From Gemmatimonadaceae bacterium (lineage in GTDB: Bacteria > Gemmatimonadota > Gemmatimonadetes > Gemmatimonadales > Gemmatimonadaceae): 64,000 nt of DNA. Both the position numbers and the translations under genes were made by a program. Of this stretch, positions 35,419 to 38,805 are shown piece after piece. The notes beneath the pieces are model-generated. The model saw nothing but the letters and a program-made list of their open reading frames with translations. It made no database searches and was not told the origin of the DNA. The DNA is taken from the NCBI GenBank assembly GCA_045803545.1, contig JBJMOW010000005.1:1152001-1216000 (forward strand). Reading direction: 5' to 3'. How positions within the stretch are numbered: position 1 is the first letter of the stretch; each line of letters starts with the position of its first letter.

Positions 35419-35985
35419 ATGAGTAGCATTGTCGAGTCGATTCGTGCGGAATATCTCCGCTACAAAACCCTGGCCGAAGGCGCAATCGATCAACTCGATG
35501 ATGCCGACTTAACGAAGGAAGGCCCGAACGGCGGTAACTCGATCGCGACGTTGTGCTGGCACATCAGCGGCAATCTCAAATCCAGGTTTTCCGATTTCCT
35601 CACCAGCGACGGAGAGAAACCCTGGCGGGACCGCGAAGAAGAGTTCCAGGCGCGAACGGTCAGCCGCGCGGATCTGCTGGAGAAGTGGAACGGCGGGTGG
35701 AAGGTATTACTCGACACCATCGCACAGTTGACCGATGAGGATCTCAGGAAGACGGTGACGATTCGGCAGCAGCCCCTGATCGTTCATGAGGCACTGCATC
35801 GCTCGCTCTCGCACACCGTATATCACGTCGGCCAGATGGTCTACATCGCGAAGGGATTTCGTGGCGCTGCGTGGAATTACCTCAGCATCCCGCCCGGGCA
35901 ATCAGCCACCTACAACAAAGCTCCCAAATTCGAGACGGCCGCCGCACAGCAGGCCGCGGTGGCAAGCAGGATTACGCGGAAGTAG
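35419..35985 (+). CDS. DinB/DUF1572 family protein
   Basis: NSI...HISGNL.SRF.DF...DGEKPWRDREEEF; HTVYHVGQ. Confidence 0.85.
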   Translation: MSSIVESIRAEYLRYKTLAEGAIDQLDDADLTKEGPNGGNSIATLCWHISGNLKSRFSDFLTSDGEKPWRDREEEFQARTVSRADLLEKWNGGWKVLLDTIAQLTDEDLRKTVTIRQQPLIVHEALHRSLSHTVYHVGQMVYIAKGFRGAAWNYLSIPPGQSATYNKAPKFETAAAQQAAVASRITRK

Positions 35986-36784
35986 GGATCCGGTTGACGC
36001 CGGCGGCGGACATTGCGCCGCTCTGCGAGGCGCGGCGCACCAAGCGCCACGGGAAGAAGTAAATCGCGTAAATCACGGCGTAGACCGCAAAGTTCTCGAG
36101 CCGCGCGAAGTGCGCGAAGAAGAAAAAGAACATCAGCATGTGCATTCGCATCACGTTTCGATACGGCTCGGAGAACAACTCGCCAAATCGCCGGTTCTGG
36201 GTCCCGGTCAAGGAAAGCGATTTCTGCGAATCGATCGAGAATGGCTTGCGCATGAAAGCCGCGCGGTGGGCGATGAAAGCCGACGGCAGAAATGGCCAGT
36301 AGCGCCTGACGATCTCCACGTATGTCGACATGTTCGCGTCGGTGGAGCGGCCATGTCCGGTCTCGATTGGAAAGAACGAAATCAGAATCTGGGAATGGAC
36401 GTAGTGAAATCCGCCGAAGTGGATCGTGAAAAATCCTAGAAAGAACGCGACGCCCACGAAGAGGATCAGCACGAGCGCGGCGATTGCGCGTGGGTTGCCG
36501 CGGAGCATCGCGCGATCGCGCCAGGCTACCTCTGCGAACTCCGAGGCAGGCTGGACTATCATCCACACAATCGTCGCGTAACCAACAACGAAGCTGGAGA
36601 GCCACAGCGACCAGATCAGATCGCCAGCACTCCACCGCGCCCACCAGGCGACGGCAAGTCCAATGGCGAAAGCAATGGCATCGGGCCAGCTGCTCGCCCA
36701 GCTTTCGGTGTTCGTTTCGGTCGCAGTTACGGTCAGGAGGCTCACAGTTACCCTCTCGACGCTCTCACTGGACCGCCGTAACAC
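35972..36784 (-). CDS. Hypothetical membrane protein (DUF6498-like)
   Basis: Several TM; FFTIHFGGFHYVH; PYRNVMRMH; start uncertain. Confidence 0.65.
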   Translation of the reverse strand: MLRRSSESVERVTVSLLTVTATETNTESWASSWPDAIAFAIGLAVAWWARWSAGDLIWSLWLSSFVVGYATIVWMIVQPASEFAEVAWRDRAMLRGNPRAIAALVLILFVGVAFFLGFFTIHFGGFHYVHSQILISFFPIETGHGRSTDANMSTYVEIVRRYWPFLPSAFIAHRAAFMRKPFSIDSQKSLSLTGTQNRRFGELFSEPYRNVMRMHMLMFFFFFAHFARLENFAVYAVIYAIYFFPWRLVRRASQSGAMSAAGVNRIPTSA

Positions 36785-36811: not shown

Positions 36812-37423
36812 ATGAATTCGGCCTTCAGACCGAGCGCTTTGGACCAACATCGGGACGCGCTGCTGCGCTGTCGCCGCTGTCGGCTGCATTCCGACGTCAC
36901 CCCGGTCGCCTCACTCGCGCGCAATCCACGAGCGATGCTCGTTGGGCAGGCGCCGGGAAAAGTTGAGGCGGAGGGCGGTGTCCCATTCTCAGGTCGCGCG
37001 GGGCGGACGCTTTTTGGTTGGCTCTCACGCGCCGGGTTGGACGAGAACGATGCTCGCGAGCAGATCTACATCTCGGCGGTCACGAGGTGCTTTCCGGGGC
37101 CTCATCCGAGCGGCCGCGGCGACCGAGTGCCGTCCAAAGTGGAGCAAGCGCATTGCGCTGATTGGCTCGAAGCGGAGCTTCGGATCATTCGGCCCAAGCT
37201 GCTGATTCCGGTGGGCAGACTGGCAATTGAGCGGTTTTTGCCCGCACTCCCGCTTGACCAGCTCATCGGCACCAAACGCAGCGTTGTCCACGCCGGCGGG
37301 CAGTCAACCGTGATTCCGCTGCCGCACCCGTCGGGCGCGAGTAGCTGGTTTTACCAGAACGACAACCAAACCCTGCTTGACCGAGCCATCGAGCTTATCG
37401 CTGTCGAGCTTGGCCGTCTCTGA
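36812..37423 (-). other. No minus-strand gene supported here (shadow of the + strand UDG gene)
   Basis: Only short antisense ORFs without motifs. Confidence 0.1.
36812..37423 (+). CDS. Uracil-DNA glycosylase family protein (Fe-S type)
   Basis: CRRC, GQAPG, PFSGRAG, RCFP, HC, HPSGAS. Confidence 0.88.
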   Translation: MNSAFRPSALDQHRDALLRCRRCRLHSDVTPVASLARNPRAMLVGQAPGKVEAEGGVPFSGRAGRTLFGWLSRAGLDENDAREQIYISAVTRCFPGPHPSGRGDRVPSKVEQAHCADWLEAELRIIRPKLLIPVGRLAIERFLPALPLDQLIGTKRSVVHAGGQSTVIPLPHPSGASSWFYQNDNQTLLDRAIELIAVELGRL

Positions 37424-37477
37424 AAAGCGACGCTAAACTTGTGGAGCGCCGCGTAGCGGCTATCACGGGAGGCAACC

Positions 37478-37849
37478 CTGACGTCAACAGCTCCGTCGAC
37501 GCGAGCCGTCAACATTGGGCCGCGCGAACGACTCAAGAGACTCAGCGCGGGAGTGGTTGGCTTCGCTCTCGGCATCGTTCTGGCCGCGGTGCTGATCGCC
37601 ATGCGCGCGCCACCGCTGTGGCGACTGTTGCTCTTCTTCCCCTTCCTGTTCGGCGCCCTCGGAGTGTTCCAATCTCGCGACAAGACGTGAGTAAGGCTTG
37701 CATCGCGCGGTCAGCGCGATCTCGACACCGGGCCCCAAAGCGTCGACAACAGCGTGGAGCTGGCGCAGCTGCGCCGGCAGGCACGCGCGGTCTACGCGAA
37801 ATCGTTCGTCACAGCGATCATTCTCACGGCGCTTTCCTTAGCGTTATAA
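37478..37849 (+). CDS. Candidate selenoprotein: 123-aa membrane protein with in-frame UGA (codon 71)
   Basis: GGGAGG RBS then CTG; NIGPRERLKRL + 2 TM + FQSRDKT-TGA-VRLASRGQRDLDTG... + TM, TAA 37847; SECIS-like hairpin downstream of the TGA. Confidence 0.75.
37702..37720 (+). promoter_or_regulatory. Putative bacterial SECIS element
   Basis: ATCGCGC-GGTCA-GCGCGAT, starting 11 nt after TGA 37688-37690; loop begins with GG. Confidence 0.65.
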
Positions 37850-38805
37850 CGCTAAGCGCTGCGCTGCTGTCGGTCGCGGCTCCGTGCGCGTCGGCGCAAA
37901 TGACGGCGGCGCGACTTGATGCGATCGTCGAAGCACAGCGCGACAGCGGCTTTTCAGGCGTGGTGCTGGTGGCGAGGAATGGCACCATCATCATGGAGAA
38001 GGCGTACTCACCGCGAAACGGGGCTCCCCTCCGCACGACGTCGCAATTCAATATCGCGTCCATCACCAAGAGCTTTACCGCCGCGGCGGTCCTGCGGCTC
38101 CGCTCCACACACCGACTGTCCTTCAGTGATCCGATCTCGCGCTTTTTTCCATACACCTCACCTGGCAAGCGCGATATCACGATCTATCATTTGCTCACCC
38201 ACACGTCGGGTCTCGCCGGACATTCGGCAGGTACGGGAATCGTGCGCCGCGATGGGGCCGTCACCGCAATCCTCGCGCAAAGACTCGAATACCCACCGGG
38301 CACGCACTATCAGTATCAGGATGACAATTACGAGCTGCTCGGCGCGGTTGTGGAGATAACTTCGGGCCTCAAGTGGGAAGACTACATCGATCGCGAGCTG
38401 CTGACTCCTGCGCGCATGAACTCAACGACCTTCCAGGGCGGCGACTGGGGACACAAAGGCGCCAATGGCATGCGGAGCACCGCGCGCGATCTCTATCGAT
38501 GGCTCACAGCCATTCACGATGGCAAACTCTTCGGCCGCACCGAAAGCCAGGAGCTCGAGTCTCCGCTGATGCACGTGCGCAGCGAGCCGCCGTACGAGAT
38601 TCATTACGGTTACGGCAATCGGATCTACGTGCGCAACGGCCGGGTCGCGGAAGTGATGCACTCGGGAAGCGGCGACGCCCGCAACACCTCGATCGCACGA
38701 ATGCTGGCCGACGGAACTATCGTCGTCGTTCTCTCCAACTCTGGCCAGCACAGGGGAACGACCTGGGCGTCGTATCTAGGGACGCGACTCGCGGCGCGCA
38801 AATAG
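37846..38805 (+). CDS. Serine hydrolase, beta-lactamase class C-like family
   Basis: FSGVVLVA, ASITKS (SxxK), LLTHTSGL, HSG; start ATA 37846 or ATG 37900. Confidence 0.85.
   Translation: MTLSAALLSVAAPCASAQMTAARLDAIVEAQRDSGFSGVVLVARNGTIIMEKAYSPRNGAPLRTTSQFNIASITKSFTAAAVLRLRSTHRLSFSDPISRFFPYTSPGKRDITIYHLLTHTSGLAGHSAGTGIVRRDGAVTAILAQRLEYPPGTHYQYQDDNYELLGAVVEITSGLKWEDYIDRELLTPARMNSTTFQGGDWGHKGANGMRSTARDLYRWLTAIHDGKLFGRTESQELESPLMHVRSEPPYEIHYGYGNRIYVRNGRVAEVMHSGSGDARNTSIARMLADGTIVVVLSNSGQHRGTTWASYLGTRLAARK

Follow-up and report, generated by a model that had tools for sequence, protein, structure and literature searches.

We find that a 123-codon gene of a Gemmatimonadaceae bacterium carries an in-frame UGA at codon 71 that, judged from sequence comparison, is almost certainly read as selenocysteine (Sec). 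The gene lies in the window, that is, the whole 64,000-nucleotide stretch that was analysed, and its family is present in Gemmatimonadota, Acidobacteriota and NC10. Comparison across genomes shows a Sec/Cys pair at one position, selection on both flanks of it, a hairpin linked to the TGA and Sec machinery. Taken together, the sequence comparisons mark this as a new selenoprotein family; the recoding mechanism is itself known.

A gene with an in-frame UGA

Re-reading of the sequence bore out the frame drawn in the preliminary description: its translation, the TGA at codon 71, the absence of Cys from the product, the TAAACT, the GGGAGG and the CTG are all as claimed (Table 1). The TGA is followed by 52 codons and then a TAA (37847-37849). 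The codon-usage score of the frame is 7.0 before the TGA and 3.2 after it, and is negative in the other two forward frames. A consensus scan at the locus found no full sigma-70 promoter. The extension of the 37441 ORF over the gene had been called spurious and probably is, since its frame has stops there in 16 of 30 genus loci and scores negative in codon usage where the selenoprotein frame scores positive; a real N-terminal extension of that ORF, which we considered, is unlikely on the same two counts.

Translation of the window copy would start at CTG or ACG, and the choice of CTG, which sits 5 nt after the GGGAGG, is uncertain. Start codons in relatives are mostly ATG, but also TTG, GTG and CTG, and the closest relative, L022, has TTG ATG at the site of the CTG ACG of the window. 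That difference could mean that the selenoprotein family is real but that this copy, its ATG now ACG, is weakly translated or decaying. We consider this quite unlikely, given that the Shine-Dalgarno-like site, the -10-like site, the TGA, the hairpin and the frame are all intact, that other members have non-ATG starts, with three database homologs starting one codon upstream (70 aa), and that pN/pS between the window copy and its relative is close to the family value.

Downstream lies a PF00144 serine hydrolase gene. The selenoprotein gene had been said to end flush with it, which did not hold up: there is no canonical start at the junction, and the serine-hydrolase frame has no ATG, GTG or TTG until 37900. 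A signal-peptide-like hydrophobic stretch of the PF00144 gene straddles the selenoprotein stop in the -1 frame (window 37820-37905). The PF00144 gene lacks an ATG, GTG or TTG before this stretch in eight loci (the window, L236, L237, L238, L246, L260, L262 and L162); in other relatives a spacer separates the two genes and the start is normal. The junction might involve non-canonical re-initiation or a frameshift fusion. Directly upstream of the selenoprotein gene is a gene of the uracil-DNA glycosylase family (window 36812-37423, plus strand), which also adjoins it in metagenome loci L119 and L154; the adjacency is probably local synteny. A DUF6498 membrane-protein gene (window 35972-36784, minus strand) is also found near the gene in the close relatives L022, L023 and L024.

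Table 1 Features of the predicted selenoprotein gene, in window positions
Feature	Position	Strand	Basis or remark
-10-like hexamer TAAACT, putative promoter	37434..37439	+	TAAACT/TAGACT similarly far upstream in many genus relatives; inferred
Shine-Dalgarno-like GGGAGG	37467..37472	+	Sequence; identical in closest relative L022
Start region: CTG (37478) or ACG (37481)	37478..37483	+	ACG position is ATG in relatives
Coding sequence, predicted three-helix membrane selenoprotein, 123 aa (122 from ACG)	37478..37849	+	Sequence, homologs, model
Conserved cytoplasmic N-terminal motif N12-I-G-x6-R21 (side predicted)	37511..37540	+	N12 invariant, R21 nearly so, in 139 proteins
Predicted membrane helices 1 and 2 (about residues 22-42 and 50-64)	37541..37669	+	AlphaFold2; family mean hydropathy 2.0-2.1
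In-frame TGA, predicted Sec71, motif Q-x4-T-U-V-x-L-A-x-x-G	37688..37690	+	TGA or Cys in homologs
Bacterial SECIS-like hairpin, stem ATCGCGC/GCGCGAT	37702..37720	+	7 Watson-Crick pairs
Hairpin loop GGTCA	37709-37713	+	18 nt after TGA; stem starts 11 nt after TGA
Predicted membrane helix 3 (about residues 109-122), read-through product only	37802..37843	+	Model helix 92-122; mean hydropathy 2.3

UGA or cysteine at position 71

Across 50 distinct genome loci, the codon at position 71 is either TGA (38 loci) or a Cys codon, TGC or TGT (12 loci), and never another; this set leaves out five duplicate loci, the partial locus L078 (22 bits) and the weak or spurious hits L048, G110 and G454. The frame continues for 52-58 codons past the TGA in 37 of the 38 TGA loci. 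Strong matches occur in 42 of the 109 genomes of the window's genus (41 TGA, one TGC; three weak matches set aside) and in 4 of 301 genomes from the phylum to which a Pyrinomonadaceae genome belongs (3 TGA, 1 Cys; again with three set aside). For the NC10 phylum, 28 of 121 genomes have a full-length match bearing one TGA (two matches omitted), and it falls at position 71 in all 10 that were fetched. The match at L078 (G342) covers the N-terminal third of the family (22 bits), after which the frame diverges; this is possibly a frameshifted copy.

Protein databases record the Sec forms as short products. A protein search returned 75 close matches, 74 of which end at the residue just before the TGA: 73 are 69-70 aa long, one 213-aa entry also ends there, and the last is full-length with Cys. 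The named protein matches are Gemmatimonadaceae 'hypothetical proteins'. A HMMER scan of 1.84 billion representatives gave 997 proteins at E <= 0.001, in 997 clusters at 50% identity. Position 71 is Cys in 182 of 188 aligned database proteins; it is Gly, Asp or Trp in four, and two are truncated there. Metagenomes contain at least 120 matches to a DNA pattern that requires the TGA and the hairpin letters. We fetched 80 of these loci, and all 80 are homologous upstream of the TGA and 79 downstream; the remaining one, without a downstream score, is cut by a contig end.

The preliminary description had predicted Cys or TGA at position 71 and conservation on both sides of the TGA. Both predictions agree with the codons of the 50 loci, the Cys of the database proteins and the conserved flanks of the genus and metagenome loci. 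The outcomes that it had listed as telling against selenocysteine (Trp, Arg or a variable residue at this position, no conservation after the TGA, or a genome without Sec machinery) were not what we found. On an approximate tree built from 207 sequences the two forms, TGA and Cys, are intermingled, with 26 parsimony changes compared with 69 for shuffled labels; the protein is short and this tree is poorly resolved.

Two other explanations were rejected. A nonsense mutation or pseudogene does not fit the TGA/Cys pattern in the 50 loci or the selection after the TGA. Genome-wide reading of TGA as Trp or Cys does not fit either: the sole tRNA with a TCA anticodon is tRNA-Sec, and 19 of the 50 loci use TGA as a normal stop at the end of the frame.

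Selection on the frame and the hairpin

Both sides of the TGA are under similar constraint. Codons 12-70, before the TGA, have a pN/pS of 0.36 across 30 genus loci, and codons 83-122, after it, one of 0.35. Synonymous divergence falls from about 0.6 elsewhere to 0.32 over hairpin codons 72-82 of the same loci. Within the hairpin, codon 77 is CGC and codon 80 is CGC in 30/30 loci, codon 76 is TCG in 29/30 and codon 78 is GGT in 29/30; the lone exception at codons 76 and 78 is the lone Cys form among the 30.

The perfect 7-bp stem with a GGTCA loop beginning 11 nt past the UGA had been described earlier, and its sequence and fold are as stated. With 7 bp, a 5-nt loop, a spacing of 18 nt and an energy of -11.8 kcal/mol, the hairpin lies within all four limits of the consensus bSECIS model, as given in the legend of Fig. 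2A of PMC13188914. The comparison that had been drawn with E. coli fdhF also proved apt, with GGTC at +22..+25 in both genes. As in fdhF-type genes with an in-frame SECIS, the UGA stands opposite Cys in homologs and the hairpin lies just 3' of it; in contrast to them, the window stem lacks the bulged U and has two pairing registers, and the protein is unrelated to FdhF.

Taken alone, the hairpin is within chance. Its z score against shuffles is -0.5 to -0.8 for folds of 43-53 nt, and in the same genome 1144 of 109,505 TGA triplets (about 1%) precede a stem of at least 7 bp with a G-starting loop at an allowed spacing. It carries weight because it is conserved, not because it is exceptional by itself. 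Over +13..+35 in 50 loci, the mean hairpin energy is -10.5 kcal/mol in TGA forms versus -5.8 in Cys forms, a difference for which p = 2e-5 is an overstatement because kin are not independent. Positions C17, G18, C19, G23, G27, C28 and G29 are invariant among 37 TGA forms. The stem alternates C and G and so can pair in two registers, whose loops are 5 nt and 3 nt long; two-sided changes occur mainly in the 3-nt-loop register (13, reached in 0/500 shuffles, a figure inflated by relatedness), and the near-invariance of the stem leaves little room for base-pair covariation. Comparison of the loci shows that TGA forms retain the hairpin and that it decays in Cys forms.

These data bear on the alternative that the TGA is a true stop, through a nonsense mutation or as the end of a 70-residue two-helix protein, with the downstream frame a remnant. 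Database annotation as 69-70-aa products and a hairpin that is not exceptional by itself would fit it, and some termination at a Sec UGA is, as is well established, expected when selenium is short. We nevertheless regard a true stop as extremely improbable: the TGA is retained across three phyla, always opposite Cys, the downstream frame is equally under purifying selection, and the TGA and Cys forms alternate on the tree, with at least 26 parsimony changes among the 207 sequences.

Selenium machinery

SelB binds hairpins of this kind and delivers Sec-tRNA. Profile searches of the window genome placed selA, selB, selD and tRNA-Sec all above curated cut-offs, and aragorn found a tRNA-SeC with anticodon TCA; the expectation that selA, selB, selC and selD would be present was thus borne out for all four. 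Every one of the 38 TGA genomes has selA or selB: leaving aside the window genome, 36 of 37 score above the cut-off for selA, and selB is present in the one that does not. Among the 12 Cys genomes, 8 have selA and one has a marginal tRNA-Sec match only; no selA, selB or tRNA-Sec was found in three (98, 82 and 78% complete). Since 242 of the 301 genomes scanned in the window's phylum have selA above the cut-off anyway (a tally that includes G007, a genome without a family match), the co-occurrence of Sec machinery and TGA is modest evidence.

The selD gene of the window genome itself bears an in-frame TGA, and this SelD gene (G000 C3:41122-42042, minus strand) is likely to encode a selenoprotein. 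Other selenoprotein candidates lie in G000 at C4:1075562 (+), C4:645754 (-) and C4:1281702 (+); from their motifs we take the candidates to be peroxiredoxin-like (TxxU), thioredoxin-like (UxxC) and AhpD-like (CxxU). The selenoproteome of Gemmatimonadota looks under-explored. The phylum is not named in the accessible text of a 2026 selenoprotein review (PMC13188914).

Relation to described families

None of the 119 prokaryotic selenoprotein families in Table 1 of PMC13188914 matches by name, motif or model; table rows with CDD or PANTHER ids only were set apart by name (soluble thioredoxin-like, Fe-S and binding proteins). Integral-membrane selenoproteins are few in that table and are mostly transporter parts. 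At cut-off, the window protein, P0001, and 26 members of A1 matched nothing in Pfam or in NCBIfam release 20, the source of the NF and TIGR ids in that table, and PHROGs likewise yielded no match at cut-off. The ESM Atlas returned unnamed clusters only, with no named match. The family goes undescribed in the accessible portions of deep-Sep (PMC12013277), BSepDB (PMC13326102), Haft and Gwadz (10.1101/2022.07.06.499078), SelCysML (PMC13745706) and a preprint on Actinomarina (10.64898/2026.04.03.716425). The literature searched, which stops short of Deng et al. 2026, Haft and Tolstoy 2025 and the BSepDB family table, holds no description of it; the first of these reports unvalidated candidates from 44,000 MAGs, according to a passage of PMC13188914. 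The earlier wording, a little-known membrane selenoprotein family, is on this evidence if anything understated.

Predicted architecture and the second cysteine

In an AlphaFold2 model built from 139 sequences with Cys in place of Sec (pLDDT 96.5, pTM 0.86), residues 15-41, 46-68, 72-76 and 92-122 are helical, residues 79-88 form a beta-hairpin and a bridge lies at residue 13. Three membrane segments stand out in the hydropathy profile. Mean Lys/Arg content is 4.0 in the N-terminus and 8.3 in the 65-108 loop versus 1.4 in the short loop at 43-49; under the positive-inside rule this distribution would place Sec71 on the cytoplasmic side. The predicted protein is thus N-in with three helices, and the N-I-G motif, Sec71 and the 79-88 beta-hairpin are predicted to pack together at the cytoplasmic side. 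Co-variation among 308 sequences links G14 and E17 to D81, D83 and S66, with G14-D81, E17-D81 and G14-D83 among the top 8 pairs; R9-C71 and N12-C71 are weakly elevated (ranks 94 and 108). A search of the PDB by sequence found nothing significant, and one by fold found no clear match: the best Foldseek E was 1.6 and the best VIA-align Z 6.7 (rmsd 3.9, 82 aligned), within the helical-bundle background, which does not establish a new fold.

Position 71 is the most conserved reactive residue of the family. Most Cys forms have a second Cys: among 168 such proteins it lies 1-3 residues before N12 in 111, at position 80 in 24 and at both sites in none, with Cys at position 18 in 5 and no second Cys in 28. 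This mutual exclusivity may largely reflect clades. The N-terminal Cys is rarer in TGA forms (12/37 genome loci and 28/75 metagenome loci). Four Cys forms (P0196, P0221, P0231 and P0257) have an unnamed N-terminal domain with CxxC motifs and a conserved His but no Pfam match, possibly zinc-binding or redox-active.

The layout recalls MerT. The mercuric transporter (PF02411) and the MerT-type 'putative mercuric transport' selenoprotein, an entry of Table 1 of PMC13188914, also have about 120 residues, three membrane helices and a thiol or selenol in the loop after helix 2. Sec71, with the second Cys, could then be a soft-metal ligand in metal or metalloid binding or transport, and the C71-x8-C80 arrangement of 24 homologs would suit this. 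The MerT profile, however, gives no match (hhalign score 16.1 over 8 columns, where shuffled profiles reached 16.2), the 25 Pfam families most often matched do not include MerT, the family lacks the conserved Cys pair of MerT within helix 1, and the flanks scanned show no mer, ars or cop operon context. We judge a metal-binding role to be improbable.

Fusions, neighbours and possible distant relatives

Ten of the 80 metagenome loci fetched (from at least 120 matches) continue into a DedA/VTT domain. Six of these fusions are complete (L127, L128, L141, L171, L172 and L177), three are cut by contig ends (L129, L151 and L187) and one is frameshifted (L146). The rhodanese at the C-terminus of the six complete fusions has a second in-frame TGA in its active-site loop (LYCS-TGA-PNE) and a hairpin of its own. 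The C-terminal partner resembles NF041203 (rhodanese-like selenoprotein form 3, CxU) together with DedA/VTT PF09335; the rhodanese part matches NF041203 with E 1e-22, below the model's cut-off. The fusions are 80-94% identical to one another and form one tight clade, and so count as one event. The window gene corresponds to the N-terminal module alone, without rhodanese or DedA, and the window genome holds no close DedA-rhodanese (best pieces 25-29%). Fused forms of greater length are absent from 7999 candidates in the protein database, which is weak evidence.

There is no conserved operon beyond close kin. About six redox or sulfur genes are found among 153 flanking ORFs: Sod, AhpC/TSA, MsrA, a pyridine-nucleotide oxidoreductase, TauE and FTR-beta (77 of 95 and 76 of 97 called ORFs were scanned, near-duplicates being left out). 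The second Cys at exclusive sites and the fusion to DedA and a Sec-rhodanese make a redox or sulfur-relay role likely.

One form of such a role needs no sulfur-carrier link: the selenoprotein could be a general membrane thiol-disulfide reductase, a scavenger of peroxides or electrophiles, or a redox sensor. Such proteins usually combine a catalytic Sec/Cys with a resolving Cys that may be absent, Sod, AhpC/TSA and MsrA are occasional neighbours, the N-terminal domain of the four Cys forms contains CxxC, and most uncharacterised selenoproteins are, according to PMC13188914, probably redox proteins. Yet the window protein has no thioredoxin fold and no CxxU or UxxC motif, and DedA-rhodanese is the only named fusion partner found. 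A purely redox function is a possibility to be taken seriously, if a doubtful one.

The most frequent weak Pfam match is PF11127 (YgaP-like, DUF2892), with 28 of 139 members at E <= 1 (best E 0.001); it is below the Pfam gathering cut-off in every member, and P0001 has no match. Comparison by hhalign aligns the N-x-G..R motif at a probability of 6-11%, one run (10.6%, E 0.003) also aligning the Cys with Sec71; a local rerun scored 18.8 versus a shuffled maximum of 14.8, across 23 columns only. E. coli YgaP is described in PMC4730233 as a rhodanese with a two-helix membrane domain. Features that it and PF11127 may have in common with the family are an N-x-G...R before a two-helix hairpin, an invariant Cys after helix 2 and an association with rhodanese. 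The window family differs in adding a beta-hairpin, a long helix and a third membrane helix, and in lacking the C-P-x-Y motif of PF11127 members.

Proposed role

The codon-71 UGA is very probably read as Sec through the in-gene SECIS hairpin, giving a predicted 123-residue three-helix inner-membrane protein, and we propose that Sec71 would be a redox-active nucleophile in a small cytoplasm-facing pocket of it. The pocket may take up and pass on sulfane sulfur (or selenium), probably with a rhodanese. Sec71 would be modified to Se-SH or Se-S and then reduced by the nearby second Cys where there is one; for copies that have none, such as that in the window, an outside thiol would reduce it. We rank this sulfur or selenium relay ahead of general thiol or peroxide redox chemistry and of metal binding, and put the chance that the reading as a whole is right, from inner-membrane Sec71 protein to relay partner, at about even. 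A more specific version, that the family is a remote Sec-using offshoot of YgaP/DUF2892 with an unsolved fold, acting as a membrane sulfane-sulfur or selenium relay with DedA-rhodanese selenoproteins, is speculative and rather unlikely.

The family is widespread, and its Sec forms are systematically cut to 69-70 aa in databases; it has no domain model and no solved relative. Because the Sec/Cys pair points to the residue that probably carries out the chemistry, the family can be tested directly. The DedA-rhodanese fusion with its two Sec residues may help to explain why rhodanese domains occur on DedA proteins, a connection described as unclear in PMC10127716, among whose references is a paper on DedA and selenite. 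If the reading as a YgaP-offshoot relay is true, the family would amount to a selenium- or sulfur-trafficking module that is widespread in soil bacteria, and the relay would be a candidate for a dedicated selenium-handling step not yet identified in prokaryotes.
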